Source: Oscillospiraceae bacterium (lineage in GTDB: Bacteria; Bacillota; Clostridia; Monoglobales; WRAG01). From it: a stretch of 64,000 nucleotides of DNA. The stretch is taken from contig WRAG01000010.1 in NCBI GenBank assembly GCA_009780345.1, forward strand, positions 251 through 64,250. Direction: 5' to 3'. A model generated the notes under the pieces. That model worked only from the letters and a program-made list of their open reading frames with translations. It was not told the origin of the DNA and searched no databases. Both the position numbers and the translations under genes were made by a program. This document shows, piece after piece, positions 5,388-59,836 of the stretch (positions within the stretch are counted from its first letter, which is position 1; each line of letters opens with the position of its first letter).

Positions 5388-6953
5388 ATGAACGTCCCTA
5401 ACGTAAACATGTGGATTTTGGTGGTTTTCGCGGTGTATTTCAGTGCGATAATCGGATTAGCGATTTATTTCAGAAAGTCGAGCAACATGAGCGACTATTA
5501 CCTGGCAGGCAGAAGCCTTAACACTTGGGTCGGCGCGCTTTCTGCGCAAACATCCGATATGTCGGGCTGGCTTCTTATGGGGCTTCCGGGTGCCGTATGG
5601 GCGGCAGGATTCGGCGGCGCGTGGATTGCCGTCGGTCTTACTATCGGAACCATTATAAACTGGTTGTTTGTCGCGAAAAAGCTGCGGCGTTACACAATTG
5701 TGGCGAATGGTTCGATAACTTTGCCCGAATTTTTAGAAAATCGTTTCCGCGACAAATCCCACGTTCTTAAAACAACGGCGGCAGTATTTTTTGCGATATT
5801 CTTCACGCTTTACGCGGCATCCGGCTTCGTTGCAGGCGGAACATTGCTTCCTCGAATTTTTGATTTAAATTATCAAACCGCGGTGCTTATTCTTTCGGCA
5901 TTTGTTGTAATTTACACTCTTATAGGCGGATTGAAAGCGATAAGCTGGACCGACACGATTCAAGGAATGCTTATGTTCTTCGCGGTTCTGTTCTTACCGA
6001 TTATTATTGTATCAATGATGGGCGGTTGGAGCGAAATTACCGCGGCGGTTGACCAACCCGGGTTTTTCAACCTGTTCTACTCCGGCGGAAACCGAATTTC
6101 AGCAATAGCAATCATATCAGGGCTTGCTTGGGGGCTTGGATATTTCGGAATGCCGCATATTTTGATTAAACTTATCGCCATTAAGAAAGAAAAATACGTT
6201 GGGCGCAGCGCGCTTATAGCTATCATATGGGTTGTTATTGCGCTTGCGGCGGCGGTTATGGTGGGGCTTGTCGGACGGGCGTTTATGCCGGACTTGGCAA
6301 ACCCTGAAACCGTGTTTAATTTGTCGGTATCGAGAATATTCCTTTACGGCGGTTCGCCGATTTGGATGGTTTTGCTTGGCGCATTATTCCTTTGCGGAAT
6401 GTTCGCGGCGATAAAATCAACGGCGGATTCGCAACTTTTGGTCGGCTCGTCGGCGGTTGGAGATATTTACAAGCAAATTAATAAAAAAGCCTCCGACAAA
6501 CATATGGTTTGGTTTAGCCGCGGAACCGTTTTGGCGGTAGCGCTAATTGCACTTTGGATTGCGCTTAACGCTTACGACCCGGTGATTGGCGGACCTGACC
6601 GTACTCGAGGTGTAATGGCGCTTGTTGCCATGGCTTGGTCGGGCTTCGGCGCGGCGTTCGGGCCTATCGTGCTTACTTCGCTTTATTGGAAACGCACAAA
6701 TCGTGTCGGCGCCATTGCCGGAATTCTTGCCGGCGGTTTGACGGTATTGATTTGGCAATACGCTCCGATTATGGGCGGCGAAACATTTTTCGGCGGTGTG
6801 ACACTTCTTGCGCATACCGGATTGCTTTCAATCGTTCCCGGATTCGCGCTCTCGCTTATCGCGATTATAATCGGAAGTTTGGTGACAAAGAAACCGACCG
6901 CTGAGATGCTTGCGGACTTTGAAACGGCGAAGAAGCCTTTGATTGAAGATTAG
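5388..6953 (+). CDS. putP: Sodium:proline symporter (SSF family)
   Basis: About 12-13 TM helices. The N-terminal pattern YYLAGRSLNTWVGALSAQTSDMSGWLLMGLPG is typical of PutP/SSF. The start may be GTG 5376 or ATG 5388. Confidence 0.85.
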   Translation: MNVPNVNMWILVVFAVYFSAIIGLAIYFRKSSNMSDYYLAGRSLNTWVGALSAQTSDMSGWLLMGLPGAVWAAGFGGAWIAVGLTIGTIINWLFVAKKLRRYTIVANGSITLPEFLENRFRDKSHVLKTTAAVFFAIFFTLYAASGFVAGGTLLPRIFDLNYQTAVLILSAFVVIYTLIGGLKAISWTDTIQGMLMFFAVLFLPIIIVSMMGGWSEITAAVDQPGFFNLFYSGGNRISAIAIISGLAWGLGYFGMPHILIKLIAIKKEKYVGRSALIAIIWVVIALAAAVMVGLVGRAFMPDLANPETVFNLSVSRIFLYGGSPIWMVLLGALFLCGMFAAIKSTADSQLLVGSSAVGDIYKQINKKASDKHMVWFSRGTVLAVALIALWIALNAYDPVIGGPDRTRGVMALVAMAWSGFGAAFGPIVLTSLYWKRTNRVGAIAGILAGGLTVLIWQYAPIMGGETFFGGVTLLAHTGLLSIVPGFALSLIAIIIGSLVTKKPTAEMLADFETAKKPLIED

Positions 6954-6970
6954 TATTTAGTATCGGCACA

Positions 6971-7011
6971 AAAAACAAAACTCCCGCTCAGTTTTGAGCG
7001 GGAGTTTTTTT
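6971..7011. terminator. Bidirectional terminator between convergent putP and the CobW-like gene
   Basis: aaaactcccgctca-gttt-tgagcgggagtttt, flanked by A- and T-runs. Confidence 0.8.
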
Positions 7012-7969
7012 ATGTATTTAGAAATCGTTTAACCTCTTCCTCGTTCATACTATTACCGATAAGTGTCAAAGTCTGCTCGCCGCTTCCTTTGAACGGCGTC
7101 ACAGTTACGTCTTGCATCGCGATATTAAGCAGAATAAGCTCGCCGTCGATGTTTAAAATTCCCTTAGCGCGGCAGATGTCGCCGAATGTTCCATCGCCGC
7201 AAAGTTCAATCAATCGCTCAAGCTTCGCGCGTGTAAAGATTGTTGCCGGCTTTATCGTTATCGAATGAAGGTGGCTGTGATGATGTGCGTAATGTTCTTC
7301 AGGCGGTAAATTTTCCTGGCTTAGCAGAAGTTCGAAATCGGCTGAATTCCAATCATCCCATGCTTTCGCGGCTATAAAAACGTCGGGATTAATATTTTTA
7401 ATATCGCAGATTAGTTCTGCCACATTCACAGCCTCGCCTCTAAATGTTTGCTCAGAGTGTGGCGTGGGAAATAGTGCAGGCTTTGCCTGCTTTTCTAATT
7501 TGCTTAAAACAATCGAGGGCGCGTTTTTAATCTGGTTATATATAAAACTGCCGTACGTCGCCTTTGAAAACTCGAAATTAACGCTGTCAACAATGGTAAT
7601 TACGTTGCCAATCTCGCATTTGTCCTTCAATTCTTCCGATTTTAGGATATCGAAAAAATTATCGAATATAAAAATTCCCGACGGCTCAAAAACGATACGG
7701 TCTGGCGAAAATGTGTCGATAACCTGCATTATCGCAACTGAAATCTCATCTTTAAGGGTGCAGCAGATACAGCCGCCCTCCATTTCGACAGCGGTGAATC
7801 CGCTCGATTCGATAATCCGCGCGTCAAGCCCGGTTTGGCCGAACTCGTTGACGATGCAAACAGATTTCAGACCCAAATCAATGTAGTATTTTAGCAGTTT
7901 ATTTACGAACGTGGTCTTTCCCGCGCCGAGGAAACCGGATATAATATCTAATTTGGTCATATTTGTCAC
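7010..7969 (-). CDS. COG0523/CobW-family G3E GTPase (putative metallochaperone)
   Basis: P-loop GFLGAGKTTF. CxCC motif GGCICCTL. His-rich stretch HYAHHHSHLH. CobW_C-like C-terminus. Confidence 0.85.
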   Translation of the reverse strand: MTNMTKLDIISGFLGAGKTTFVNKLLKYYIDLGLKSVCIVNEFGQTGLDARIIESSGFTAVEMEGGCICCTLKDEISVAIMQVIDTFSPDRIVFEPSGIFIFDNFFDILKSEELKDKCEIGNVITIVDSVNFEFSKATYGSFIYNQIKNAPSIVLSKLEKQAKPALFPTPHSEQTFRGEAVNVAELICDIKNINPDVFIAAKAWDDWNSADFELLLSQENLPPEEHYAHHHSHLHSITIKPATIFTRAKLERLIELCGDGTFGDICRAKGILNIDGELILLNIAMQDVTVTPFKGSGEQTLTLIGNSMNEEEVKRFLNT

Positions 7970-7977
7970 CTCTTAAT

Positions 7978-8047
7978 GTAGGGGCGGCATTTTGCCGCCC
8001 GTGCTAACGGATAATATCATTTTCGGGCGGCAAAATGCCGCCCCTAC
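7978..8047. repeat. Inverted pair of 24-nt arms, each arm itself a self-complementary GC hairpin
   Basis: gtaggggcggcattttgccgcccg .. cgggcggcaaaatgccgcccctac, located between mtaC and the CobW-like gene. Confidence 0.8.
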
Positions 8048-8099
8048 AATTAAAAAGCGACTACAAAATAAGTAGCCGCTTTGAATTATCATTGTCGAA

Positions 8100-8732
8100 T
8101 TAAGCAACGAATGTTCGCGCAACTTCCGCCGCGCTTGCCGCGTCGGGCGAATATGCGTCCGCGCCGATTTGGTCGCTGAAACTTTGAGAAATTGGCGCGC
8201 CGCCAACCATGATCTTAACGCTGTCACGAAGTCCGGCAGCTTTAAGCGCGTCGATTACCACTTGCTGCTCATTCATAGTTGTGGTAAGAAGCGCCGACAA
8301 CAGAAGAACTTGTGGCTTGTGCTCTCGAACCGCTTCAACAATTTTGTCTTCCGAAATGTCGATACCCAAATCCATAACTTCGAATCCTGCGCCCTCTAAC
8401 ATCATTTTAACCAAGTTTTTGCCGATATCGTGCAAGTCGCCTTTAACCGTGCAGATAATCGCTCTTCCGATAGGTTGAACGCCCTCTTCAAGCAGCTTTT
8501 GCTTCAAAAGTTCGGTTCCTTGATTTAAAGCGCGCGCCGCGATTAGAACTTCGGGCACAAAAACTTCGTTATTTTTAAATCTAACACCGATTTTTCCCAT
8601 GCCGTCAAGCAATCCTTGGTCAAGAATTTTCGACGCCGGAATACCGTCCGCAATTGCTTGCTTCACAAGCTCGACAACGTCTTTTGCTTTACCTTTTTGC
8701 AGTGATTCAGAAATGTTAACTAAGATTTCCAT
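8100..8732 (-). CDS. mtaC: Corrinoid (B12)-binding protein of a methyltransferase system
   Basis: N-terminal helical cap plus a Rossmann B12-binding domain with the DxHxxG motif (GDLHDIGKNLV). It lies adjacent to mtaB. Confidence 0.8.
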   Translation of the reverse strand: MEILVNISESLQKGKAKDVVELVKQAIADGIPASKILDQGLLDGMGKIGVRFKNNEVFVPEVLIAARALNQGTELLKQKLLEEGVQPIGRAIICTVKGDLHDIGKNLVKMMLEGAGFEVMDLGIDISEDKIVEAVREHKPQVLLLSALLTTTMNEQQVVIDALKAAGLRDSVKIMVGGAPISQSFSDQIGADAYSPDAASAAEVARTFVA

Positions 8733-8752
8733 GTTTTTATCCTCCTAAAATT

Positions 8753-8800
8753 ATTATACTGATTTTTATTATTAATTTGTCAAGGACCAGCCCTTGACAA
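8753..8800 (-). promoter_or_regulatory. Candidate mtaC promoter embedded in a 9-bp-arm palindrome
   Basis: On the minus strand: TTGACA (8778-8783), 19-nt spacer, TATAAT (8753-8758). The palindrome ttgtcaagg-accagc-ccttgacaa spans 8777-8800. The spacer is longer than optimal. Confidence 0.45.
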
Positions 8801-9206
8801 TCCCGCAATCTTTTGCGCGTCAAAAGTTTGATCAAAACCGGTCGCCTTGCGTTGTCGCAAAACGCTTACGCTGCGCAACGAATCGGCGACGGCGAGTGCG
8901 AACAACTCGTCATTACCCAACAACATCTCGCGCTTTTAGGCGCGGGTCGCTCTCGACCGAGCGCAGTGCTATATCTCTCTAATTTTTCCGCGAACGCGGC
9001 TAGTCAACCCAGCTTTTCTGTCGCCGGCTTTGGTGCAAATCGCCGCTTTTTGGCGTTTGCGTCCATAGGCGACCGGGATTGGTAAGGGCAGAGCCCTTAT
9101 CGCCCGTCCGGCAGGACACAATGCCCGCAGAGCCTCGCTCTGAATAATGGTTTTTAGGGCATCGCCCTAAAAACCTACGCTGTGGCGTAGCCACTACGTA
9201 TTCCTG
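8801..9206 (-). other. GC-rich, hairpin-dense non-coding spacer between mtaB and mtaC
   Basis: At least 10 short stem-loops, for example ggtttttagggc-atc-gccctaaaaacc, aagggc-aga-gccctt, cagagc-ctc-gctctg, ccgcg-aa-cgcgg and cttttg-cgcgt-caaaag. Only short Arg-rich ORFs are present. Confidence 0.6.
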
Positions 9207-10577
9207 CTACATATCGTACTTCTTAGGATCCAACTTCGAGCATCGTGGAATCATTTGCTCTGCCAGTTCGCCCGCGTCTTTCGGCATATCCTGAACCGTT
9301 TCGGCAAGCATATCCAACCACATAAGCTCTTTATCGTCCAAGTTAAGCTCTTTATTGTTATACGCTTTTTGCATATATTCAAGCGCGAGCAATGCGCCTG
9401 CTTTCGAACGCTCGTAATATCCGTCGATTTTAACAAGTTCTTTAGAAATATTAAGCACAACGTCGGGACGCAACACATATGCCTGCGGATCAAGTCTGCT
9501 GTCACTATCCGCATGCAAGTCACGCATGAGAAGTGCGGCATCTTTGCCGCGAGCGGTAGCTTCGTTCATCAAACGGCAATCGTAAACAAGTTGCTCGAAC
9601 GAAACGGTGGGAGCCATTCCGCCGAGAAGTTTGATGTTCTGAATCGACTCGTTGCTCCAAATATCAGCCAGGCAGAACGCGATATTTCCAATCGGCGATA
9701 AATGCGCGCAAGCCGCGGTTCTTCCCTCCATAGAAATCGGAGTTCCTGTAATCGCTTTAACGTATGCGCCTTCGTAGCCGCAATCTTTATGCGGACCTTT
9801 CGCGCCGCATTCAATAGCGACAAGCGCGCGAATCGCGGAAACCACTCTTACGGTCGCGGAGAACACTTTCGGTATCATGTTTCGATCGGCGAGAACCATA
9901 GCGGTGTTCGCAAATCCACACGCGCTGTCGCCCGCCGGAACCACGCCGGTTTTATCGCAGATGTTTACGATTTCGCTCCAAAGTTTGTTCATATCGGTGC
10001 AGCCAAGCACAGACAGCGCGAAGATTGACTTATCAATCTCGCCGAACATAATCGCTTCGTCATGCGATTCTTTTCCGCCGACAGATTCGATGGAAATGAA
10101 GTCCGCGCCCACTTTCGCGCAACCTTCAATAACGCTAAGTACAGATTCCCATTGCTTACCCTTCCACATATGTTCAAGCCCCGGGCCTTCGCGCATATCA
10201 ACGGGCGTAAGCCTTACAGAACCTTTAATACCATGCTTCGCTTCGTATTCTTTGATCACGTCAACAACGGTTTTGCAAACCTCGACGCCCCACTCGGGAT
10301 TCACAGTCATAGGCGGCAGGGTTTCGATCTCCGCCACGAAGCCGGGAACATAAAGCTCTTTCGCGCGGTCGCATATGCCTGTAATGATTTCTTTGTAGTT
10401 GCGAATAACTTCGGGCATTGTTTCCTGCGTGATAAGCATTGGCGGCAACGTAAAGTTAACTTCCGGATAAACCGTTCCGCCGCCGATTGACATTCCGTTT
10501 TTAAGCGTAACGGGGTGTAGCGACTTTCCGTATATAAAATCGTCAAGATTTTGATATGCGGTTTTGGTAAAATTCAT
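9207..10577 (-). CDS. mtaB: Methanol:corrinoid methyltransferase (MtaB family)
   Basis: About 456 aa starting at ATG 10577, with RBS AAAGGAG 9 nt upstream. The conserved block GPHKDCGYEGAYVKAITGTPISMEGRTAACAHLS matches the MtaB core as I recall it from Methanosarcina. The ORF-track start at 10700 is an upstream extension. Confidence 0.85.
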   Translation of the reverse strand: MNFTKTAYQNLDDFIYGKSLHPVTLKNGMSIGGGTVYPEVNFTLPPMLITQETMPEVIRNYKEIITGICDRAKELYVPGFVAEIETLPPMTVNPEWGVEVCKTVVDVIKEYEAKHGIKGSVRLTPVDMREGPGLEHMWKGKQWESVLSVIEGCAKVGADFISIESVGGKESHDEAIMFGEIDKSIFALSVLGCTDMNKLWSEIVNICDKTGVVPAGDSACGFANTAMVLADRNMIPKVFSATVRVVSAIRALVAIECGAKGPHKDCGYEGAYVKAITGTPISMEGRTAACAHLSPIGNIAFCLADIWSNESIQNIKLLGGMAPTVSFEQLVYDCRLMNEATARGKDAALLMRDLHADSDSRLDPQAYVLRPDVVLNISKELVKIDGYYERSKAGALLALEYMQKAYNNKELNLDDKELMWLDMLAETVQDMPKDAGELAEQMIPRCSKLDPKKYDM

Positions 10578-10941
10578 CTTTAACATCTCCTTTTGAGACT
10601 TAGATTGCGTGAATTGCCGCAATCTATAGTCGGTAACGGCAGCCCGCGCATAGCGTGCGGCAATTACACTATGCCGTTTTGACGCGTATTTTGCGTCCAA
10701 AGTTCAGGGGCGTAACATTCTTGTGCGTCTTTACAAGAATGCAAAGCCATCTGCCTTTTCTAAAATTTATGTCTGTAACATTTTCATTTTGGTACTTATT
10801 TTACACTAATTGCATAGGGATTTATAGCAAAATTTTTTGATTTTTTGAAAAATTATGCTTTTTTCTCCAAATCAGGCTTGAAATTGCAGTAATTTAGTGA
10901 TATTCTTAATTGGGCATGCTTACAAAGCGGGAGGACTGCAT

Positions 10942-11958
10942 ATGAAAAAAATTAATTGGAAAGCGATTCAATTTGCTGTGGCTTTAACACTTTTTATCGT
11001 CGGATGGCTGTTTGACGCCGACGCTTTTAGGCATCGATTCCACGATTTCGAGTTTTTAAAGCCATATTTGCTTTTGGCAAGTTATGTTATCATAGGTTGG
11101 AAAGTTATCTTCACCGCGTTTCGCAATATGTTCAAGGGGCAATTTTTTGATATAAATTTCTTGATAACCGTTACCACATTCGGTGCTATCGCGCTTGGGA
11201 TATATAGTATGTACACAGGCGGGCATGGTCATCATTGTTGCGATTACCATCACAATCACGATTACTTGCGCCATTTTTGCGATTATTTCAAGGAAGCCGC
11301 GAAGGTTATGCTGTTTTTCTTTATAGGTATGCACTTTCAGGATTTGGCAGTGCGAAAATCGCAAAAGGCAATTGAGGAAGCGAATTGCGCACACACTAAA
11401 GACTTTAAAAAGCCTGCAACCGAAGAGTTTATCACTAAATTTTCGAAACTTTACACACCGATTGTGGTTGGCGCGGCGTTGTTGCTTGCTGTAATCCCGC
11501 CTTTGTTGTTCGGCGGACTGTGGGAAGATTGGATTTACCGCTCGCTGATATTTTTGGTGATTTCCTGTCCTTGCGCGCTTGTTATATCGGTTCCCATGAG
11601 CTATGCCGCCGGAATCGGCGCGGCGAGGAAAAACGGCATATTAATAAGTTGCGGCTGTTATTTGGACAGGCTTGCGCGCGGTAACAAAGCCGAAATCGAC
11701 GAAATGATTGACGCGGGCGACATTGTATTGACCTCAAACGAGCCGACGGCGATTGAGCGTGCCGTAAAAATCGCGAGAAAGACAAAACGTATCGTATGGC
11801 AGAATATCGTATTTATACTGGGCGTGAAAGTAGCGTTGTTAGCGTTCGGCGCGTTCGGAATCACTGGTATTTGGGAAGCCGTTATGTCGGATATCGGGAT
11901 TGCCACACTTGCGACGTTGAACGCTTTGCGAGCGGCGCGGGTATCGACGAAAATATAG
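10942..11958 (+). CDS. Membrane-domain-only derivative of a P1B-type (CadA/ZntA-like) heavy-metal ATPase
   Basis: It keeps FFDINFLITVTTFGA, VMLFFFIGMHFQDLAVRKSQKAIEEA, the CPC helix LVISCPCALVISVP, GILISCGCYLDRL, and C-terminal DIVL..ARKTKRIVWQNI..LNALRA. It has no TGES actuator domain, no DKTGT and no GDGxND. A His/Cys-rich insert GHGHHCCDYHHNHDYLRHFCDY is present. RBS GGGAGGA precedes ATG 10942. Confidence 0.75.
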   Translation: MKKINWKAIQFAVALTLFIVGWLFDADAFRHRFHDFEFLKPYLLLASYVIIGWKVIFTAFRNMFKGQFFDINFLITVTTFGAIALGIYSMYTGGHGHHCCDYHHNHDYLRHFCDYFKEAAKVMLFFFIGMHFQDLAVRKSQKAIEEANCAHTKDFKKPATEEFITKFSKLYTPIVVGAALLLAVIPPLLFGGLWEDWIYRSLIFLVISCPCALVISVPMSYAAGIGAARKNGILISCGCYLDRLARGNKAEIDEMIDAGDIVLTSNEPTAIERAVKIARKTKRIVWQNIVFILGVKVALLAFGAFGITGIWEAVMSDIGIATLATLNALRAARVSTKI

Positions 11959-11989
11959 AAAAAAGCCGCTTGAGAGAGCGGCTTTTTTA
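11957..11989. terminator. Bidirectional terminator
   Basis: aaaaaagccgct-tgagag-agcggctttttt between convergent genes. Confidence 0.8.
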
Positions 11990-11990
11990 T

Positions 11991-12470
11991 CTATCCAACG
12001 TCTTTTTCCATATCAACGTGCGGGCAACCGTGGATAACATATTCGTCACTAACAATGCTGTATCCGCATTTTTTGTAAAATCCCAACGTATGCGATTGCG
12101 CGCTTAGCAGGATTTTTCTCGCGCCGAGCGAGATTGCCTTCTCTTCCATAAGCGACATAAGCCGCGCGCCGTCGCCGGATTTTCTTCGCGAGGAGAGTAT
12201 CGCAACTCTGCCGATTCGAAAGTCGGTGGAATTTTCTTGAACAAGCCGCCCCGTTCCGATTGGAACATCGTTTTCGTACAGCACGATATTCAGCGACGAA
12301 GATTCCAACTCGTCGAACACCACTCCAACCGCGGCGAAACCTTGTTCGTCAACGAACACCGATGTTCTGATTAATTCAACGTCCGGCGTTAAGCCGAGCG
12401 ACCAAATACTTTTATATTTATTCACGCAAACAAATCCTTTCGCGCCGCGATTATTCTTCGGCGGTTTCAA
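11991..12470 (-). CDS. GNAT-family N-acetyltransferase
   Basis: Acetyl-CoA pocket pattern GRVAILSSRRKSGDGARLM and a C-terminal FYKKCGY. The start is uncertain and overlaps the upstream gene end. Confidence 0.7.
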   Translation of the reverse strand: MKPPKNNRGAKGFVCVNKYKSIWSLGLTPDVELIRTSVFVDEQGFAAVGVVFDELESSSLNIVLYENDVPIGTGRLVQENSTDFRIGRVAILSSRRKSGDGARLMSLMEEKAISLGARKILLSAQSHTLGFYKKCGYSIVSDEYVIHGCPHVDMEKDVG

Positions 12471-13686
12471 ATTTTTCCGGTTGCATAGTTTCCGCGTCGT
12501 ATTTCCGTGTCATTAACCGGCAGAGAAAGAAGTTCACAATAAGCGCAATGCCGGAGAAGAAAAACCACCAATTTATTCCGATAATTTCACTTATCGGAGC
12601 CGCAATTAAAAGCCCTAAAGGCGTCATAGACGTTACTGCCATCATAATGAGTGAGAAGACTTTCCCCATTTTGTCGGGCGCGATTGTCTCTTGAATATAC
12701 GCCATAAACGGCACTTGCATAAAAGGAACGGAACCGCCCATAAAAAAGCAAAGAACAATAAAAACCCAAAATGCGTTGTACGGCAAAGCTCCGCTGACCA
12801 AAGCAGTGATCCCCATAAGCCCGATTGCTAAAGACGCCATCAAGAATCGGCGTTTCATTCCGCCCAAAGTTCCGAGGATAAGCGAGGCTGCCACCATTCC
12901 GCCGGCGAATAGGAATTCAGACATTCCGTTATGCCACTCGGTTCCTAAAAAATGAACACGCACTAATAGCGGAAACAACGATCCTAACGGCATAAACAAA
13001 AACATCATAATCAACAAAAACGGAAATATCGACATAAGCGGCTTGTTTTCTCGCATTGCGTGAAAACCTTGTTTCATATCCGCAATTATGCTCACTTTTT
13101 CGCCGCTTTTCGGAATGTCGGGAATTTTGATGAATAACAGGCAGGTGATTGCGCAAATCATTCCAAAAATATCAATCAATACGACGCCTTCTATTGAAAA
13201 CAATCTAAAAAGTGCCGCGCCCATAACGGGTCCCAGTAATGATGAAAATGAGTTTATCATGCTGCCCCAACCGCCTGCTTTGGTAAGCATTTCCGGCGGA
13301 ACAAGCATAGGAATCGCCGCTTGCATTGCAGGCATATGGAAAGTTGTTCCGATTCCGCGCATAAATAATATGATATAAACAAACCAAATCGGCGGTGTTT
13401 CAAATAAAAGGAAAACAACCCCTAAGGTCGCGCTTAAAATTGCCACGTAAATATCCGCGATAATCATAACAGTTCGACGGTTATAGCGGTCAACCCAAAC
13501 TCCCGCAATCGGTCCTAAAAGTATGCTTGGAACGATTGCCACGATTGCCGCTATACCAAGCGAAATGGCAGATTCGGTTTGTATCGTAACCCACCAGATA
13601 ACGGCGAACTGTACGGCGCTTGCGCCGAGAAGCGTAAACGCTTGGCTTGTGATAATAGGTACAAATTGTTTTTTCCAGTTCGTCAT
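12451..13686 (-). CDS. MFS transporter (DHA3/macrolide-efflux-like)
   Basis: About 12 TM helices. The N-terminal pattern FTLLGASAVQFAVIWWV..GPIAGVWVDRYNRR is present. Probable start is MTNWKK at 13686. Confidence 0.75.
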   Translation of the reverse strand: MTNWKKQFVPIITSQAFTLLGASAVQFAVIWWVTIQTESAISLGIAAIVAIVPSILLGPIAGVWVDRYNRRTVMIIADIYVAILSATLGVVFLLFETPPIWFVYIILFMRGIGTTFHMPAMQAAIPMLVPPEMLTKAGGWGSMINSFSSLLGPVMGAALFRLFSIEGVVLIDIFGMICAITCLLFIKIPDIPKSGEKVSIIADMKQGFHAMRENKPLMSIFPFLLIMMFLFMPLGSLFPLLVRVHFLGTEWHNGMSEFLFAGGMVAASLILGTLGGMKRRFLMASLAIGLMGITALVSGALPYNAFWVFIVLCFFMGGSVPFMQVPFMAYIQETIAPDKMGKVFSLIMMAVTSMTPLGLLIAAPISEIIGINWWFFFSGIALIVNFFLCRLMTRKYDAETMQPEKFETAEE

Positions 13687-52069: not shown

Positions 52070-53653
52070 TTAAAAATCGATTTGAAATGTTTGAGAACAA
52101 TGATTATTTGGTTTGAATAAAGCAAAACGGCTTGAAACAGAATGTTTCAAGCCGAAATTTGGTGCGCCGATTAAGGAAGCAGACGAACCGCCAAGCCCAC
52201 TATCAACAGGGCATTTCTCAATCCCTGCATTAACCTCGTCAAGCGTTATAGTACGCTCACCATCTTTACAATTCAATACTAAAACAATTTTATTATCATA
52301 AATATACACCGAATTAACGAAAATGTCAACAAGTTTTTGCTTTTCTTCCCAATCTTCAATGTTCACTTCTCGCCAACGGCAAACCCAAAACCTTATATCT
52401 TCCTTTGATAGCAAGGGTTTCTTGATTTGTTCCTGCAAAATAGCAACTTCAAGCTGATTTTTGCGTTCCTCTAATTCGTCAAGCCGTTTCTTAGTAAATT
52501 CGTTGTAAATACCGTCTTGTATAGCATTTAGGATATTGGTTGCTGACCTTTCAACCTCTGCAAGTTGCTTTTGAAGTAACGGCAATTCGGGATTTTCTCG
52601 TCCTTGCAATGCGAAAAGTGCGTCAACTATGCGATTGATAAGCGGTTCGTCATTCAGCATTTCCATAACGTGAAAAATAACTAAATCCTCAATCCACGCT
52701 TTTTTGGCGGTCTTTTTATCACATTTTCGTTTTCGTGCGTGATAACACTTGTAGTAGCGATATATATTATTCCGTCCAGTTCCACTCTCGCCCGTCATCA
52801 TTGCTCCGCATTTTCCGCAAAATAATTTCATTGTCAATAAATACTGCTCGTCCAACGCTTTCAAGCGTGACGGTGCTTTCTTATTCTTCCTCATATTATC
52901 TTGAACTTTGTCGAATATTTCTTGTGAAATTATCGGCTCAAAAGCGTTTTCAATAGTTATATCCTTGAACGAATATTCGCCCAAATATCGGCGATTTTTC
53001 AACATATATGTAACACGGTTGATATTCATTTCCCCGCCCTTGACATTCCGTATTCCTCTGCTATTTAAGCTGTTTACAATGGTTTTAATCGTCTTTCCGT
53101 TTGCGTAATCGGTGAAAACCTCACGAACGACAGGAGCGGTCACGGGGTCGATTTCAAAATATTGCTCGTCATTTATCTTGTAACCAAACGGAATCGAACC
53201 GCCGTTAAACTTACATTTTAGAGCGTTTTCGGTCATTCCTCGATTTACTTTAACCGCAAGTTCAGCGGAATAATATTCAGCGAAACCCTCTAATACGCTT
53301 TCCATCAGCATACCCTCGGGGGTGTCGGACAGTCGCTCGGTTGCAGACACGACACGGACATTGTTTTTCGCCAAAAGATGCTTGTAATGCGCGCTGTCAT
53401 AGCGATTTCTCGCAAATCTGTCTAACTTCCAGACCAGAACGACATCAAATAATTCTTTTCCGCTATCTTTTATCATTCGCTGAAATTCGGGTCGGTTATC
53501 GGTCTTGGCTGATAAAGCCCTGTCTATGTAAGTGTTAAGTATTGTTATACCTTGTTTTTCGGCGTATTCCTTACATTCTCGGAGTTGCCCCTCAACGCTA
53601 TTTTCGGTTTGATTATCAGAAGAATAGCGGGCATAGATGACGGCATTTTTCAT
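52070..53653 (-). CDS. Large serine recombinase
   Basis: Resolvase catalytic domain VIYARYSSDNQ..VLVWKLDRFARN. Recombinase domain. Zinc ribbon CGKCG..YYKCYHARKRKCDKK. Coiled coil. The last ~45 codons run through a terminator-like hairpin, so the true C-terminus is uncertain. Confidence 0.85.
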   Translation of the reverse strand: MKNAVIYARYSSDNQTENSVEGQLRECKEYAEKQGITILNTYIDRALSAKTDNRPEFQRMIKDSGKELFDVVLVWKLDRFARNRYDSAHYKHLLAKNNVRVVSATERLSDTPEGMLMESVLEGFAEYYSAELAVKVNRGMTENALKCKFNGGSIPFGYKINDEQYFEIDPVTAPVVREVFTDYANGKTIKTIVNSLNSRGIRNVKGGEMNINRVTYMLKNRRYLGEYSFKDITIENAFEPIISQEIFDKVQDNMRKNKKAPSRLKALDEQYLLTMKLFCGKCGAMMTGESGTGRNNIYRYYKCYHARKRKCDKKTAKKAWIEDLVIFHVMEMLNDEPLINRIVDALFALQGRENPELPLLQKQLAEVERSATNILNAIQDGIYNEFTKKRLDELEERKNQLEVAILQEQIKKPLLSKEDIRFWVCRWREVNIEDWEEKQKLVDIFVNSVYIYDNKIVLVLNCKDGERTITLDEVNAGIEKCPVDSGLGGSSASLIGAPNFGLKHSVSSRFALFKPNNHCSQTFQIDF

Positions 53654-54024
53654 TCGCCCTCACCGCCTGTACTTAACCTTAAAATCGCCTCTTGAAGTTT
53701 AGCGTTGAGTGCGGAATTTGGTTCAAAACAAGCCTTGACGAACTGCGCCCATTCTTCTTTGTTTTCCATTTTGCTCCGCAGAATATCCGGCTCATAATTG
53801 TATAGCTTGCCTTGCGGTTTCTCGCAACGCCCGAAAATCCAATCAAGCGAAACATCAAAATGGTCGGCATACCAACGGAGTAATTTGTTTGTTGCCTCGC
53901 CCTTTCCGTTTTCAATTTTGGCAACTGTTGATTGATTTGTTACGCCCGATAATTCGGCTAATTCTTTTTGCGAATATCCCGCCGAAATTCTTAATGTTCT
54001 TAAATTTTCTGCCATTTTATACAT
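53650..54024 (-). CDS. XRE-family HTH regulator, translationally coupled to the recombinase gene
   Basis: HTH GYSQKELAELSGVTNQSTVAKIENG. 4-nt overlap with the recombinase start. Confidence 0.8.
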   Translation of the reverse strand: MYKMAENLRTLRISAGYSQKELAELSGVTNQSTVAKIENGKGEATNKLLRWYADHFDVSLDWIFGRCEKPQGKLYNYEPDILRSKMENKEEWAQFVKACFEPNSALNAKLQEAILRLSTGGEGE

Positions 54025-54116
54025 AGTAAAACCTCATTTCATTGTGTTTTGAATACATTGTATTATATAAACGAATTGTTGTCAAGTTTTATTTTGAATT
54101 TATTTTATGGATTTTT

Positions 54117-54191
54117 GTAATACTTAAAATGTCCCCAACTTTGAAACATAAAAAAACATTCCCAATGTTGGGAATGTTTTGGAGTATTACT
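54117..54191 (+). repeat. ~76-bp structured repeat, copy L1
   Basis: Outer inverted repeat tgtaatac / gtattac. Inner perfect palindrome aaaacattcccaa-tg-ttgggaatgtttt. It aligns with 57921..57997 in direct orientation. Confidence 0.8.
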
Positions 54192-54248
54192 GATTGTCAA
54201 GCGGATTGAAAGTAGAGGGTGAACATCTTTTAACAATAAAATTTAGAT

Positions 54249-54767
54249 TTACAATCCCCATATAATTCCTATCTTTTTCATACTAACATATTTCTTCCGG
54301 CTAACGATTATATGGTCGTGCAGTTTTACATCAATGGTCTTTAAAGCATTCGCAACTTTGGTCGTAACATCAATATCGTTAATAGATGGTTCTAATTCAC
54401 CGCTTGGGTGATTATGAGCCAAAACAACGGAATGCGCATTGCTTGAAATCACAGTTTCCATAATAAGCCTAATGGGAGCAGGTGCTGAATTTGGGTCGCC
54501 ACGAGAAATTTGGTCATAGCTAATAAGGCGTTTGCTTGATGAAAGACTAATAAGATACAATTCTTCTGCCATCTTGCTATAAAACAAAGTTATCGCATAT
54601 TTGCCAACTTTCTCTGTCGTGTCTAAAATCGGAGTATCCCCCATCATCATTCTGTCGTAAATTCCTGAAATTGTCGGAAGTTGCTCTATAAAATATTCCA
54701 ACTGTTCTTGTTGTAGTCTTTTATGAAATTCAATCAACTTTTCAAGTTCATTAGTCATTCCATTCAT
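54249..54767 (-). CDS. radC: RadC-like JAB/MPN-domain protein
   Basis: JAMM motif LAHNHPSGELEPSINDIDVT. Confidence 0.8.
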   Translation of the reverse strand: MNGMTNELEKLIEFHKRLQQEQLEYFIEQLPTISGIYDRMMMGDTPILDTTEKVGKYAITLFYSKMAEELYLISLSSSKRLISYDQISRGDPNSAPAPIRLIMETVISSNAHSVVLAHNHPSGELEPSINDIDVTTKVANALKTIDVKLHDHIIVSRKKYVSMKKIGIIWGL

Positions 54768-54769
54768 TC

Positions 54770-56038
54770 TTACGCCGCCTTATCAATATCAACATTTGTT
54801 CGTACCGATTTTCGTCTTAACTTTGAGAATATCTTAACAGGGAAATCATTTGCGTTATCTGAAACCTTAAAGGTTAATGTTCCGTCGTTCTCCATAAATT
54901 TCAACGATAATTTTCGGTCAAATATGTACTTCACCTGTGAACTGTCTAATTTATATATGGAATTTTTCAATGAATCCAACATTGCCGACTTGAACAAATT
55001 GTCAACTTTATCCAATAAATTCTTATCGACCAAACCATCGCATACAAACAAAATATTCTTATCTGCACAAGTTTGAATGATGTCGAATAATTCGGCGACA
55101 AACTCCATATTTCCGCTTGCTACGTGACGGAGCATTTCGCAACCGTTCAAGAGGATGTCACCTTTAATCAAATTATCAATTTCAGAAATAGAACTGAAAT
55201 CTGTTTTAAGAGTAGCAAGGCTTTTGCGGTCATATTGATTAGAAAGAACCGCAAAATTCTCAATGATTTCCTCGAAATTATTAGCATAACTATTATAAAT
55301 TTCGGCAGTTTTTGTGTTGCCATTTTGCGCCCAATCGCTTAAAAATATTTTTTTGTAATTTTCCAAACTCCAAATCGCTGTCTTGATTTCGTTGTCATAC
55401 GCAAGTCGTGAGTAATATTTTTTAAGTTGATATATTATCGCAAAACCAAATAAAGGAACGACAACACCTAATAAAGCAATCAGCAGCAAATCATTCACAA
55501 TCGTTGTACGGAATAATGTGGTCGTAGTTAAAACAACAACGCCAATTGGCAAAAGAATTTTCAAAGATTTTCTGTCGTTATCCCGAACATTCTTTAAACC
55601 GTCTTGTTGTTTGATAAGATGATAAATGCCAAAATGAATAGGGGTACTGATTAAATCATCGAAAATATATGGTATTGTTAAATTCCAAATAACATTGTCT
55701 ATAATCCCTATTATTACTTGTGAGACAATCCAAACTGAAACGCTGATTGTGTATGCCATAGCCAAAGCTAAAATTTTCGGTTTTTCTTTATGCATTACCC
55801 GTAAAGTCACCCATAGCAATGTCAAACCCAATAAAGAACGCACAGGTTCAATGAAATTGAACATTGATGTTGCAATAAAATAGAGGGCAAAAACAAGTGT
55901 TGCAACAGTAACCTTTATTATTTCGCCCTTGTTATTAAATGTTTTCTTCCCTTGTATTATTCTGTAATGCAAATTGCAAAATATAGCCAAAACCAAGTTA
56001 ATAGAAATGATTGTAAGCATTTCCATAAGTTCCCTCAC
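54770..56038 (-). CDS. Polytopic membrane protein (6-7 TM) with a ~190-aa cytoplasmic domain of unknown function
   Basis: TM-rich N-terminal half. The C-terminal half has a faint layout resemblance to AgrC-type GHKL kinases (..LFKSAMLDSLKNSI.., LKFMENDGTLTFKVSDNANDFP) but lacks the H-box and G-boxes. It ends 2 nt before radC starts. Confidence 0.55.
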   Translation of the reverse strand: MRELMEMLTIISINLVLAIFCNLHYRIIQGKKTFNNKGEIIKVTVATLVFALYFIATSMFNFIEPVRSLLGLTLLWVTLRVMHKEKPKILALAMAYTISVSVWIVSQVIIGIIDNVIWNLTIPYIFDDLISTPIHFGIYHLIKQQDGLKNVRDNDRKSLKILLPIGVVVLTTTTLFRTTIVNDLLLIALLGVVVPLFGFAIIYQLKKYYSRLAYDNEIKTAIWSLENYKKIFLSDWAQNGNTKTAEIYNSYANNFEEIIENFAVLSNQYDRKSLATLKTDFSSISEIDNLIKGDILLNGCEMLRHVASGNMEFVAELFDIIQTCADKNILFVCDGLVDKNLLDKVDNLFKSAMLDSLKNSIYKLDSSQVKYIFDRKLSLKFMENDGTLTFKVSDNANDFPVKIFSKLRRKSVRTNVDIDKAA

Positions 56039-56146
56039 CTCAAGGACAGTCTAACATATTTTGACGAAATTTGCAAGATTTATTTTAGAAATTGCTACGA
56101 CAAAAACACCCTAATTTTTTAGAGTGTTTTTGTATAAACGAAATAA

Positions 56147-56320
56147 TTATCTTCGTCTTATGCCGTCACCAAACCTCTGTGCAAACCTATCTAATCTTTC
56201 CCTTGCCGTTGGTCTTTGTCTGTTACTCGTTGACATCGGCGTTGCTTGCGCCGACTTGATTTCTTTTGCAAGCAACGCTTCCCTTTGTGCTGATGTCATT
56301 ACTATTGGTTTTATTGACAT
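56147..56320 (-). CDS. Small basic protein (57 aa), unknown function
   Basis: RBS GAGGAGG about 8 nt upstream of ATG 56320. Sequence MSIKPIVMTSAQREALLAKEIKS..RERLDRFAQRFGDGIRRR. Confidence 0.45.
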   Translation of the reverse strand: MSIKPIVMTSAQREALLAKEIKSAQATPMSTSNRQRPTARERLDRFAQRFGDGIRRR

Positions 56321-56361
56321 TTCTTTCACCTCCTCTGCCTGTCAATTGCCGTTACCAAAGT

Positions 56362-56760
56362 TTACAGTCTTCTCAAGAACGCTTCTACTCCACGAACATC
56401 TCTCCTAATGCTGGCGTTCATCCCGTCCCTAAGTCGAGGAAATCTATCCCAAAACTCAGATGAAGCTCCAATTTGCGCCATTGTTGTAGCTTGGTGTGGA
56501 TTTATTGGAATTGGTGTAGGTCGCGCAAAATTACCACCCAACATCGCTCTTGTTATTGGTCCGACTATTCCGTCAACGACAAGACCGTTGTTAAGTTGAA
56601 AATGTCGCACAGCGTAATCGGTGTTTGCTCCAAAAAATCCGTCCGCTTGAAGTCCTAAACCGTTCAATCCCAAATAACCGCCGTGTTTTAAGAATAATTG
56701 GATTGTCCGAATACACGATATGTCTCTCGGTTTGTTGTTATTGGTAAACATACTATACAT
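56362..56760 (-). CDS. Peptidoglycan-binding-domain (PG_binding_1-like) protein without a signal peptide
   Basis: RBS GGAGGTG. IQLFLKHGGYLGL..ADGFFGANTDYAVRHFQLNNGLVVDGIVGPITRAML. Confidence 0.65.
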   Translation of the reverse strand: MYSMFTNNNKPRDISCIRTIQLFLKHGGYLGLNGLGLQADGFFGANTDYAVRHFQLNNGLVVDGIVGPITRAMLGGNFARPTPIPINPHQATTMAQIGASSEFWDRFPRLRDGMNASIRRDVRGVEAFLRRL

Positions 56761-56955
56761 CTATTTCACCTCCTCTCTTTTTGTGACTTATATTAAACCG
56801 CGCGTGGTTTACAAGATTTTATTGACAACTTCATATCATTTGTGATACAATGTTAGTCAAGATATATTATACAGTATAATTTTGCAACTGTCAACACTTT
56901 TGTGCAATAAAAATATTTATGTTGCGTTATTAGTCGGAAAGGAGTGGTTAATATT

Positions 56956-57405
56956 ATGTCAAAAGCCTGTTTTTTCGGTCACAGGAATATAAATAGCACT
57001 ATAACTCCTATTTTACGCGCTGAAATTGAAAATCACATTGTTGAAAAAGGTGTGAATACATTTTATGTGGGCGTTGACGGTAAATTTGACACCATTGTCG
57101 CCGCCGTTTTACGAGAATTGCAGAAAAAATATTCTTATATAAGCATATATCGTATATTGGCATATCTTCCGACTGATAAAGACGAATACCGTGATGGACA
57201 GTACGAAAAGACGATATATCCCGAAGGGCTTGAGCTTGTGCCACAACGATTTGCGATTAAGTTTAGAAACCGTTGGATTGTAGAGCAAACCGATTTTGTG
57301 ATAGCTTATGTTCAGTTGGATTACGGCGGCGCGTATGAAGCCGTGAAATACGCAGAACGAAAGAAAAAAAGCATTATAAATATAGCACGGATAGGAAAGG
57401 ACTGA
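56956..57405 (+). CDS. SLOG-family (DUF1273/YoqJ-like) protein
   Basis: CFFGHRN near the N-terminus. YVGVDGKFD. RNRWIVEQTDFVIAYV. GGAYEAVKYAERKKKSIINI. RBS AAAGGAG 11 nt upstream of ATG 56956. Confidence 0.7.
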   Translation: MSKACFFGHRNINSTITPILRAEIENHIVEKGVNTFYVGVDGKFDTIVAAVLRELQKKYSYISIYRILAYLPTDKDEYRDGQYEKTIYPEGLELVPQRFAIKFRNRWIVEQTDFVIAYVQLDYGGAYEAVKYAERKKKSIINIARIGKD

Positions 57406-57412
57406 TTTAATA

Positions 57413-57847
57413 ATGTTAGAGTTTAAAGAAAGATTACAGTTATTGAGGGCGTTAAATAAAGTTTCGCAAGAAGATTTTGCAAAGGCGTTAAATATTTCGC
57501 GCGGTGCTGTAAGCGGTTATGAAACAGGAATCCGAACACCGGATATTGATGTTTTACAAAATACCGCTGAATTTTTCGGCGTTTCTGCTGACTATTTATT
57601 AGGGATTTCCGATGTAAAGAATACCGACACCGATTTACAAGCAATCTGTAAAGCGTTGAATTTGAGCGAAAGAGCCGTTGAGAATTTGCGAAATACGAAA
57701 GGTAAAACAACAGATTTATTGTTAAATTCGGATGAATGGAATGTTTTTATTGACAGCATTTCGGAAGTTTTGAAAAGCAAAAAAGATGTTGAATATAAAA
57801 AATTCCTCGCAACCCAATGCTTGTTGAAAATGTTAAACGAAATTTAA
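57413..57847 (+). CDS. XRE-family HTH regulator
   Basis: HTH VSQEDFAKALNISRGAVSGYETG and FFGVSADYLLG. Confidence 0.8.
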   Translation: MLEFKERLQLLRALNKVSQEDFAKALNISRGAVSGYETGIRTPDIDVLQNTAEFFGVSADYLLGISDVKNTDTDLQAICKALNLSERAVENLRNTKGKTTDLLLNSDEWNVFIDSISEVLKSKKDVEYKKFLATQCLLKMLNEI

Positions 57848-57920
57848 TAAATCCCATTTGACAAAAAAATTCATTTATGCTACAATTTCCGCAAGGGAAT
57901 TGTAGCATTTTCAATTAGAA

Positions 57921-57997
57921 TGTAATACGATAATGTTCCCAACTTGGGAACATTAAAAAACATTCCCAACATTGGGAATGTTTTTGAGGGTATTACA
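57921..57997 (+). repeat. ~76-bp structured repeat, copy L2
   Basis: Outer tgtaatac / gtattaca. Inner hairpins atgttccc-aactt-gggaacat and aaaacattcccaa-ca-ttgggaatgtttt. Confidence 0.8.
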
Positions 57998-58122
57998 TAC
58001 CATAATATATTTTGCAAGATTTATCTTGCAAAATTTCGGTGTTGCGAAAGCAAACCGAATTGACGGCGGAAGCCGTCAGGCGTTGTCCACAGACAACGCA
58101 ATCCCCCTCGGAGAGCCCACAA

Positions 58123-58200
58123 CACTTTACAAATTCAGCCGCTCCAAGCGGTGAATTTGAAAGTGTTATAGTGGGTTACATACTTTCAGCAGAAAGTACG
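58123..58200 (+). other. Candidate oriT for the MobV relaxase
   Basis: Imperfect 18-bp inverted repeat cactttacaaattcagccgc-tccaa-gcggtgaatttgaaagtg, followed by TTATAGTGGGTTACATACTTTC. That tail resembles my recollection of the pMV158-type nick region (..TATAGTGTG/TTATACTTT..). Confidence 0.45.
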
Positions 58201-58270
58201 GTGTTGCTCCGAAGTTTGGTTGAGGGGTTTTAAGTTTGGGTTTAGAAATGAGGTATTTGCTTTGGCGAAT

Positions 58271-59455
58271 ATGACAGTTGTTCGCAACAATCCGCACAGC
58301 CGGAATAGTGTTGGTGCGGTCGAACGGCATAACGAACGAAAAAACGAAACATATTCAAATGTTGATGTTGTTGTGGAGCAATCGCATAACAATATTTATT
58401 TTAAGAAATGCGAAAATACATACCTACAAATTTTTGATAAAATGATTGCTGATAATGTTATCAGTACGCGCGGATTGAAACCTGACGCACACATTATGGG
58501 TGAAATGATTTTTGATGTGAATACCCGATATTTTGAGGAAAACGGCGGTTATGAGTTCGCAAGGAAATTTTATGAAGACGCGTACAAATTTGCCGTTGAT
58601 TTGGTTGGTGATGAAAGATATATAATCTCGTCTGTAATGCACGCTGACGAGCGAAACAAGGCACTTACGGACGAACTCGAAAAAGATGTATTTCATTATC
58701 ATTTACATATCGTTTATGTGCCTGTCGTGGAAAAGGAAATCCGTTGGAGCAAACGCTGTAAAACCCCCGAATTGATTGGAACAGTTAAGGAAGTTATAAA
58801 CCAAGTATCACATTCAAAAAAATGGCAGTCTACCCTTGAAAATGGGGTTATGACGAAATCATATTCCAAACTTCAAGACGATTTTTGGGAACATATGCGA
58901 AGTGCCGGGTACGAGGTCGAGCGCGGCGAAAAGGGTTCTACCAAAGAACATTTAACAGTTATCGAATACAAAACCGAGCAAGAAACACAACGGCTTGCGG
59001 AAGTTACGCAACAAGTTATGCAGCAGATGTTTATGCAACAAAAACTTGACGAGGAAATTGTTCTCAAAGAGAGTGTTATCAAGCAAAAGGAGCAATTAGA
59101 CAAACTTGGCAAGAAAACGCTTATCGGAAACGAAATCAAGCTGACAGCGAAAGAGTTTGAGGAAGTTAAAAACCTTGCTTTGATTGGGATTGACAGTCAA
59201 ATTGAGATTAAGGAACTTAAAAGCGAAATTAAAATGGTCAAGTCAAATTACAACGCTTTACAAAAAGCATACGATATTTTACAGTTGAAATATGACGATT
59301 TGAAGTTAGAATTTGCAAGATTGAAAAGGAAAGTTCAACCCTATATTGACGCTTTGAAACATTCGCCTGAAAAGGTTAGGGCGGTTATTCAAGAGGTATT
59401 GAATTTGATAAAACAAGATAAACAAAAAAAGAAAAATCGTTACAAACAAAAATAA
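58271..59455 (+). CDS. MobV-family (Mob/Pre) relaxase
   Basis: N-terminal VERHNERKNETYSN. HxDE..HxH motif VMHADERN..FHYHLHIVYVP. Long C-terminal coiled coil. The ORF-track start at 58220 is probably an extension. Confidence 0.85.
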   Translation: MTVVRNNPHSRNSVGAVERHNERKNETYSNVDVVVEQSHNNIYFKKCENTYLQIFDKMIADNVISTRGLKPDAHIMGEMIFDVNTRYFEENGGYEFARKFYEDAYKFAVDLVGDERYIISSVMHADERNKALTDELEKDVFHYHLHIVYVPVVEKEIRWSKRCKTPELIGTVKEVINQVSHSKKWQSTLENGVMTKSYSKLQDDFWEHMRSAGYEVERGEKGSTKEHLTVIEYKTEQETQRLAEVTQQVMQQMFMQQKLDEEIVLKESVIKQKEQLDKLGKKTLIGNEIKLTAKEFEEVKNLALIGIDSQIEIKELKSEIKMVKSNYNALQKAYDILQLKYDDLKLEFARLKRKVQPYIDALKHSPEKVRAVIQEVLNLIKQDKQKKKNRYKQK

Positions 59456-59675
59456 TAAAAAATTTTTGCACAAAAAATTTGACGCCTTTTATTTGTATAA
59501 GTTATAATTATATTACCATTCAATGGTAGAAACAAATGAAAGGGGGGCAGTAGCTCCAAGTCCGTTATCGCCTCAATACGGATATGGCTTTGGAAGATGG
59601 CGTTGAAATGTTCGCCCACATTGTCGAAAATAAAAAACGGATGTATTGACCTCGATAATTGTTTAGGAGTGCGAT

Positions 59676-59831
59676 ATGCGAACGGACAAATTGAAAAATA
59701 ACTCTATTCCGCAATTTGAGATTGATAGTTTAGCGAAGTTGCTTTTACCGAAAATGCAAGCGTATTTTGAAAGTGAACAGGGCAAGCGAGAGTTTGAGGA
59801 ATGGAAAGAGAAACAGGAACATAAGCAGTAA
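59676..59831 (+). CDS. Small hypothetical protein (51 aa), below the ORF-track length cutoff
   Basis: RBS AGGAG 6 nt upstream of ATG 59676. Sequence MRTDKLKNNSIPQFEIDSLAKLLLPKMQAYFESEQGKREFEEWKEKQEHKQ. A hairpin terminator follows. Confidence 0.45.
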   Translation: MRTDKLKNNSIPQFEIDSLAKLLLPKMQAYFESEQGKREFEEWKEKQEHKQ

Positions 59832-59836
59832 AGGTT

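Follow-up and report, generated by a model that had tools for sequence, protein, structure and literature searches.

Recurrent reduction of CadA/ZntA-type metal pumps to their membrane domain, and a possible ATP-independent metal translocator beside a methanol methyltransferase operon

P-type ATPases serve in textbooks as the model of a tightly coupled pump, whose membrane domain is taken to be inert once deprived of the cytoplasmic actuator (A), phosphorylation (P) and nucleotide-binding (N) domains. Members of the P1B-2 type, such as ZntA and CadA, share a transmembrane signature made up of CPC in helix M4, N(x)7K in M5 and DxG(x)7N in M6 (PMC6305203), and they operate as electrogenic uniporters which move the bare cation without a counter-ion (PMC10246665). 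The gene considered here lies in a 64,000-nucleotide stretch of contig WRAG01000010.1 (hereafter the window), from an Oscillospiraceae metagenome-assembled genome, and encodes a 338-residue protein whose exact NCBI entry carries the PGAP label "hypothetical protein". A first-pass annotation, made from the letters of the window, had proposed that it is a P1B ATPase cut in frame to its membrane domain (M-domain), and alignments to Shigella ZntA and to a full-length relative bear this out. The protein is homologous to the P1B-2 M-domain, yet it has none of the features that define a catalytic P-type ATPase; it is under strong purifying selection and belongs to a scattered set of similarly reduced proteins. 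We tentatively propose that it is a stand-alone ATP-independent metal-translocating membrane protein, most likely an importer. No description of membrane-only P1B proteins was found in the open-access literature, which is absence of evidence and not proof of novelty, and a recent review of the open questions of the field does not mention them.

Comparison with the PDB using phmmer aligned four collinear segments of the protein with Shigella ZntA (4UMV), namely residues 20-87 with ZntA 140-199, 117-144 with 201-228, 156-250 with 339-438 and 252-333 with 649-730. Because this four-piece alignment jumps over ZntA 229-338 and 439-648, the A domain and the P and N domains, respectively, are the parts that have been skipped. 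Alignment to the nearest full-length relative (P0002) maps the same two junctions: its residues 72-181 are replaced by residues 145-155 of the query and its residues 271-495 by residues 245-252, and residues 87-114 of the query form a 28-residue insertion. Over the common parts the identity to the full-length proteins P0002, P0003 and P0030 is 53-56%. The first-pass annotation had thus located both deletion sites correctly, with nucleotide positions for the linkers that were 3-18 nt off, and the inserted His/Cys-rich loop that it described is likewise recovered (Table 1). Pattern searches of the 338-residue protein found CPC at residues 209-211 and no DKTG[TS], TGE[SN], GDGxND or MLTGD, in agreement with the absence of TGES, DKTGT and GDGxND noted earlier; with these motifs and the N domain gone, nothing of what a catalytically competent P-type ATPase requires is left. 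The Pfam scan matched only the C-terminal third of E1-E2_ATPase (52.8 bits against a cut-off of 28.1) and returned no Hydrolase/HAD match, and the NCBIfam ZntA/CadA/ATPase-IB models scored 128-148 bits against curated cut-offs of 313-1240, which leaves the protein outside these families. The P1B-2 membrane signature is present in full, as CPC in M4, N288(x)7K296 in M5 and D317-I-G319(x)7N327 in M6. Without A, P and N domains, and with every P-type signature motif missing, the protein cannot hydrolyse ATP or form an aspartyl-phosphate. That it is homologous to the eight-helix membrane part of the P1B-2 ATPases (ZntA/CadA type) is confirmed, and its ancestor is best read as a CadA/ZntA-type pump without a metal-binding domain (MBD).

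Structure prediction points the same way. AlphaFold2, run on a 57-sequence alignment, returned a confident ZntA-like fold (predicted local distance difference test score, pLDDT, 89; predicted TM-score, pTM, 0.85) with eight transmembrane helices at residues 6-23, 39-64, 71-92, 107-146, 159-190, 194-230, 269-304 and 310-333, among them the P1B-specific MA and MB with the kinked MB' platform. The predicted M4 (194-230) is unwound or broken at CPC, as in real pumps, and the remnants of the P-domain stalk that flank the scar of the larger deletion fold into a stub of two strands and two helices; pLDDT drops below 50 only at residues 97-103 within the His/Cys loop. A Foldseek search of the PDB placed ZntA (4UMW/4UMV) on top with a query-normalised TM-score of 0.65-0.69, followed by CopA, CadA, HMA4 and ATP7B. 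What is retained is hence a complete eight-helix M-domain with every residue of the transmembrane Zn/Cd/Co-type site and of the exit path. The predicted cytoplasmic segments hold 27 Lys/Arg residues versus 5 outside, and since the M1-M2 loop of ZntA is extracytoplasmic and the positive-inside count agrees with this, the His/Cys insertion and the His-containing MA-MB loop should both face outside, an orientation which the first-pass annotation did not foresee. The insertion stands directly before E118, which aligns with ZntA E202, for which a role in stimulating the release of metal along the exit pathway has been proposed (PMC6305203).

The gene shows the marks of selective maintenance. Two metagenome contigs (L001 and L002) carry an orthologue of 94% identity in the same synteny. 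Between the window and L001 the ratio of nonsynonymous to synonymous substitution rates (dN/dS, or omega) is 0.056 by the Nei-Gojobori method (22 nonsynonymous and 82 synonymous; dS 0.51), which falls inside the range of 0.014-0.112 obtained for seven neighboring genes from the same two sequences, and every His and Cys of the insertion is kept in the L001 orthologue/P0001. Likewise, the reading frames of 16 diverse short forms are intact, with no frameshifts or stops. A pseudogene would be expected to have a dN/dS near 1, a broken reading frame or no homologues of the same architecture, and nothing of the kind is seen. The earlier suggestion that this is not a random pseudogene is accordingly upheld, both by these values and by the finding of same-architecture homologues and of no adjacent gene for the lost domains; the query gene is shown to be under strong purifying selection.

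An initial protein search had already returned other proteins of 316-358 residues which share about 40% identity with the query across 86% of its length. In an exhaustive profile search of 1.84 billion representatives, of which the top 150 were examined, at least 12 short representatives (clusters at 50% identity) share the truncated architecture, ten of them matching in a single stretch and two in two stretches (P0080, P0001, P0122, P0123, P0127, P0135, P0142, P0148, P0149, P0159, P0162 and P0254). All come from metagenomes and none bears a functional name. A profile search with 16 short forms had only full-length pumps in its top 120, and scans of genome and metagenome contigs with the query protein yielded only L002 again. 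One further candidate, L049, was rejected as a short form because it encodes a normal 646-residue pump; at L049 5470-7791 a gene for an ArsR/CadC-like regulator precedes this CadA-type pump, a canonical arrangement that is missing from the short forms.

These short forms do not look like the descendants of a single truncated ancestor. On 251 shared core columns each of them resembles one given full-length pump more than it does most of the other short forms. With near-identical short forms excluded from the comparison, P0135 is 72% identical to the pump P0006 and 57% to its best short counterpart; the corresponding values are 68% (to P0138) and 56% for P0254, 65% (to P0006) and 57% for P0149, 63% (to P0125) and 57% for P0127, and 54% (to P0030) and 49% for the query. 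Monophyly of all short forms was recovered in 0 of 300 neighbor-joining (NJ) bootstrap replicates, and P0254 and P0148 group with the pump P0138 at 98%. Gene order adds to this. A 290-residue short form on L009 is syntenic with a 589-residue full-length pump on L091, the common order being a gene for a 72-residue HMA protein that overlaps the P1B start, followed by radical-SAM, MFS and transketolase genes, so that the L009 short form is the positional orthologue of a pump. A single origin of the short forms was rejected on these three grounds, the bootstrap, the pairwise identities and synteny. In both loci (L009 7488-8578 and L091 4783-6770) the HMA protein is of the Zn/Cd type (GxDCxxC) and its gene overlaps the start codon, which indicates that the coupling to the chaperone outlived the ATPase domains themselves; the short form P0284 has an HMA gene translationally coupled to it.

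Elsewhere the reduced copy lies beside its parent type. On L006 a short form is found two genes downstream of an intact 637-residue pump, with which it shares 82% identity in its first 137 residues and 73% as a whole; the dS of 1.45 indicates that the short copy is old. It represents an ancient tandem copy whose domains were lost and whose sister pump was retained. In this second, independent short lineage (P0127 versus P0276, L006 type) dN/dS is 0.07, and that of the neighboring MatE gene is 0.056. Synonymous-only differences among L006, L007 and L008 were discarded, because the look-up returns identical-protein contigs only and so introduces an ascertainment bias. There are also signs of how the reduction proceeded. 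Eight relatives (P0138, P0106, P0129, P0124, P0250, P0140, P0157 and P0033) have only 82-104 residues between DKTGT and GDGxND, versus a median of 192, and keep TGES, DKTGT, GDGxND and the other motifs; they appear to lack the N domain and may represent intermediates in the reduction, or else pumps that are not driven by ATP. The short form P0254 retains a degenerate second half of the P domain, with VGGKAEE in place of GDGIND. In the light of these N-domain-less pumps and the P0254 vestige the reduction looks stepwise. The same membrane-only reduction is shown to be polyphyletic, having arisen several times independently, which is a second point that the first-pass annotation did not foresee.

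Across these lineages conservation follows the path of the ion. The 16 short forms have, without exception, E118, the S-C-P-C-A segment at 208-212, N288, K296, D317, G319 and N327, and CPC is invariant in all 57 aligned sequences. By comparison, the P-domain hinge positions (K236, G237, N239 and the AAIEAAD segment) are 88-100% conserved in the pumps and 0-44% in the short forms. This decay of the hinge beside invariant ion-path residues suggests that constraint is centred on the intramembrane metal site and exit path and not on the cytoplasmic remnants. His/Cys tracts occur in 9 of 16 short forms versus 6 of 41 long forms, a count that ignores phylogeny. Their positions vary, from the N-terminus to the new linker that replaces the A domain (P0149, P0159) and, in the query clade only, the external loop; as these positions differ and one of them lies inside the new linker, at least some tracts were probably gained after the deletions. 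The query clade alone also replaces E71, M75 and E130 (E71I, M75I, E130M). In ZntA the equivalent of M75 (M187) is part of a cap preventing backflow, and that of E130 (E214) belongs to the entry funnel (PMC6305203).

The first-pass annotation had drawn attention to the divergent mtaB and to a nearby COG0523 metallochaperone, and genes for MtaB, MtaC and a CobW/COG0523 protein indeed adjoin the gene. The His-rich stretch of this CobW protein resembles those of Zn-associated COG0523 members, and the protein may be a metallochaperone dedicated to the methyltransferase system. The mtaB/COG0523 neighborhood is conserved only in the narrow clade of the query, and its functional link to the P1B derivative is one that we can only infer; other short forms lie in unrelated surroundings. 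The roles which the first-pass annotation had suggested, an ATP-independent metal channel, sensor or chaperone partner with a link to metal supply, are likewise conjecture. On L009 the GxDCxxC HMA chaperone has a corrinoid methyltransferase set a few genes away, and the L006 locus holds an HMA gene, the pump, a CbiK-domain protein and a BtuF-like binding protein. Metal-related neighbors thereby recur in three lineages (query, L009 and L006), which is suggestive only. Within the window there is no full-length P1B pump, and a six-frame search of it for HMA motifs of the GMxCxxC type gave no match.

That several further gut bacteria have independently undergone this reduction, and that selection preserves the gene, suggests a task for the membrane part which needs no ATP, probably the uptake of metal. 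The reading that we lean towards, at somewhat short of an even chance, is that of a metal translocator working without ATP and most probably inwards. The M-domain, once freed from the gating A and P domains, would flip thermally between inward-open and outward-open states and behave as a uniporter or a slow channel; because P1B-2 pumps carry the bare cation electrogenically, an uncoupled M-domain that still alternates access would be a uniporter. The inside-negative potential and the buffered cytosol would then direct net flux inward. In the query clade the outward His/Cys loop by the exit Glu would capture external metal, and the mutated cytoplasmic "anti-backflow" and funnel residues would ease its release into the cell, where the neighboring COG0523 chaperone would collect it, a part that an HMA chaperone or a cytoplasmic His tract could play in other lineages. 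The metal might finally supply Zn to MtaB or Co to corrinoid enzymes. The external loop, the lost cap and funnel residues and the adjacent chaperone would all fit an uptake role. It is conceivable, if doubtful, that CadA/ZntA-type efflux pumps have repeatedly been converted to stand-alone inward ATP-independent metal uniporters, which would form an unrecognised class of Zn/Co uptake systems, here supplying the methanol methyltransferase system.

Several points weigh against uptake by an uncoupled M-domain. We know of no P-type M-domain shown to translocate ions without its cytoplasmic domains, and in intact pumps the outer gate opens only in the E2P state. The inward direction is a purely thermodynamic argument. 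In most other short forms the His tracts are cytoplasmic, as in exporters, and the acids of the entry funnel are kept. The neighborhoods of the short forms are not conserved across lineages, the forms themselves are rare, come in small clusters and are so far only metagenome-derived, and the phylogeny is an NJ tree with long branches. Finally, the short-versus-full orthologue pair L009/L091 has a raised omega of 0.27, which suggests that some relaxation of constraint has occurred.

It is less probable, and in our estimate unlikely, that the protein does not transport at all but binds metal at the membrane as a sensor, buffer or docking platform, exchanging it with chaperones or modulating a full-length pump by hetero-oligomerisation. 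Metal would in that case be held at the CPC/Asp site and in the His/Cys tracts, with HMA and COG0523 chaperones as partners. Conservation of the metal ligands and of the MB' platform region would suit such a binder, as would the HMA chaperone coupled translationally to one short form in an arrangement inherited from the pump operon, the locus that unites a short form with its intact pump paralogue and an HMA gene, and the lack of any known gating mechanism without the A and P domains. However, E118 and K296, which no short form has lost, are residues of release rather than of binding and are hard to explain without translocation. Moreover, most short forms have no pump or chaperone nearby, and the binding loop of the query would be on the side of the membrane opposite any cytoplasmic chaperone.

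Rather more remote is the idea that the ancestral direction of efflux was kept and that the protein is an ATP-independent exporter, for instance a secondary transporter exchanging metal for protons via the K296-D317 pair. It meets the difficulties that efflux against the membrane potential needs an energy source, of which none is evident, that P1B-2 pumps showed no proton counter-transport (PMC10246665), and that the query clade lost its funnel acids and cap Met and gained a binding loop on the outside. The features that would speak for an exporter belong to other members of the set: most short forms resemble efflux pumps in their cytoplasmic entry-funnel acids and N-terminal or linker His tracts, and one is coupled to a cytoplasmic GxDCxxC HMA donor.

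We consider it improbable that these proteins are slowly decaying remnants without a function of their own, whose reading frames are kept by the cost of misfolded or truncated membrane proteins, or whose deletions are too recent for decay to be visible. The best argument for decay is the raised omega of the short-versus-full pair, to which can be added the degenerative look of the series of partial losses (the N-domain-less pumps and the vestigial GDGxND region of P0254), and the rarity and small clusters of the family. Against this, post-deletion omegas in two independent lineages (0.056 and 0.07) equal those of functional neighbors, 16 diverse members are free of frameshifts and stops, only the cytoplasmic remnants decay and all ion-path residues are invariant, His/Cys tracts arose anew once the domains had gone, the promoter region has been conserved, and the dS of the tandem paralogue pair makes the short copy old. 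It is barely credible that the ATPase is split and that a second gene provides the missing A, P and N domains in trans: an adjacent gene of this kind, which the first-pass annotation had named among the findings that would overturn its proposal, was looked for in the window and nine other loci and no isolated E1-E2 A domain or HAD hydrolase gene was found, which argues against the idea, the only nearby P1B gene (on L006) is a complete pump, and linkers of 8-11 residues leave no docking stalks.

The features of the locus are collected in Table 1. The gene was described earlier as having a good ribosome-binding site and its own terminator, and GGAGG is indeed found at 10929-10933, 8 nt upstream of the ATG, with a hairpin directly after the stop codon, though this is common to the gene and the convergent GNAT gene. 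Over the 167 nt that precede the ATG, identity to L001 is about 95% in spite of the gene dS of 0.5, which is consistent with a conserved regulatory region. A scan of 6500-12600 with Rfam produced only sub-threshold chance matches and no riboswitch. A 156-bp segment by the mtaB start (10591-10746), with two imperfect inverted repeats (10612-10665 and 10709-10748), is missing from the otherwise collinear L001 and has no Rfam match; it may be regulatory, or else a small insertion. The mechanically called mtaB reading frame spans 9207-10700 on the reverse strand, starting with TTG at 10700 and encoding 497 residues, but as the L001 orthologue has 456 residues the true start is probably the ATG at 10577 (MNFTKTAY...). 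Downstream of the gene come genes for a GNAT protein, an MFS transporter, a response regulator and histidine kinase pair, and ABC-2 proteins. Farther along, a run of giant surface-protein genes (22639-51930) encodes products of 882-2079 residues, of which the 882-residue one has SLH and DUF285 domains and the 938-residue one SLH domains. The region 52070-61357, with a large serine recombinase (52070-53653), a Mob_Pre relaxase (58220-59455) and an HTH_17 protein (59987-61357), is likely an integrated mobilisable element.

Table 1. Features of the membrane-only P1B-2 gene and of the divergent operon beside it (window coordinates).
Feature	Position	Strand	Remarks
Divergent mtaB-mtaC-COG0523/CobW operon	7010..10577	-	
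COG0523/CobW GTPase	7010-7969	-	End of operon; GCICC motif and His-rich tract HYAHHHSHLHS
mtaC	8100-8732	-	Corrinoid protein (MtaC type)
mtaB	9207-10577	-	Pfam MtaB
Conserved upstream region, putatively regulatory	10775..10941	+	AT-rich inverted repeats (10826-10874) and ribosome-binding site
Promoter-like element	10878..10906	+	TTGAAA, 17 nt, TG-extended TATTCT; within block 10775-10941
Coding sequence, membrane-only P1B-2 derivative, 338 aa	10942..11958	+	ATG to stop; NCBI MCL2838122.1
His/Cys-rich insertion, residues 93-117	11218..11292	+	7 His and 3 Cys; M1-M2 loop
Linker, residues 145-155	11374..11406	+	In place of the actuator (A) domain of about 110 aa
CPC metal-site motif in M4	11566..11574	+	C209-P210-C211, equivalent to ZntA C392-P-C394
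Scar, residues 245-252	11674..11697	+	In place of the P and N domains of about 225 aa
K296 (M5) to D317 (M6)	11827..11892	+	ZntA K693 and D714; built-in counter-ion and metal ligand (residue roles in ZntA, here and for the other positions, from PMC6305203)
Bidirectional intrinsic terminator hairpin	11959..11988	.	Common to the gene and the convergent GNAT gene

A membrane-only form which is naturally selected and recurrent would offer a minimal system in which the binding, gating and passive flux of the M-domain can be studied alone, and structural studies of the metal pathway would gain a small and probably tractable protein. Such proteins are at present labelled "hypothetical" or missed by family models, and they could stand for a way of taking up metal in anaerobic gut bacteria that annotation has overlooked. 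Were the proposed translocation to hold, it would represent a natural conversion of a pump into a carrier and a P-type membrane domain able to work alone.

The closest known systems are ZntA and CadA, especially the MBD-less CadA-type pumps of about 560-590 residues from Clostridia, which have the homologous eight-helix domain (MA, MB and M1-M6) and share with the query the CPC of M4, the Lys of M5, the DxG of M6 and the exit Glu of M2. The query differs from them in having no A, P or N domain, in its 28-residue external His/Cys loop and in the replacement of E71, M75 and E130. As regards the role proposed for it, CFTR among the ABC transporters and the palytoxin-bound Na,K-ATPase are comparable, in that a primary-active scaffold lets ions move passively downhill once coupling has been lost. 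Nevertheless, CFTR keeps its ATPase domains as gates and the palytoxin state is induced by a toxin, whereas in the query the energy-coupling domains have been deleted by evolution. For the alternative of a binding partner the model would be the membrane metallochaperones of the PacL1 type, outlined as partners of P1B pumps (PMC9374683), which are likewise small membrane proteins with metal-binding motifs and a place in P1B-dependent metal handling; they are not homologous, having a single transmembrane helix where the query is the pump's own eight-helix domain. Lastly, HmtA of Pseudomonas aeruginosa, going by its description in reviews as a P1B-type Zn/Cu importer (PMC8456098, PMC10393844), resembles our proposal in putting a P1B-family membrane pathway to use in uptake and not efflux, a comparison by description only, and differs from it in being a P-type ATPase, whereas the protein encoded in the window has no ATPase domains.

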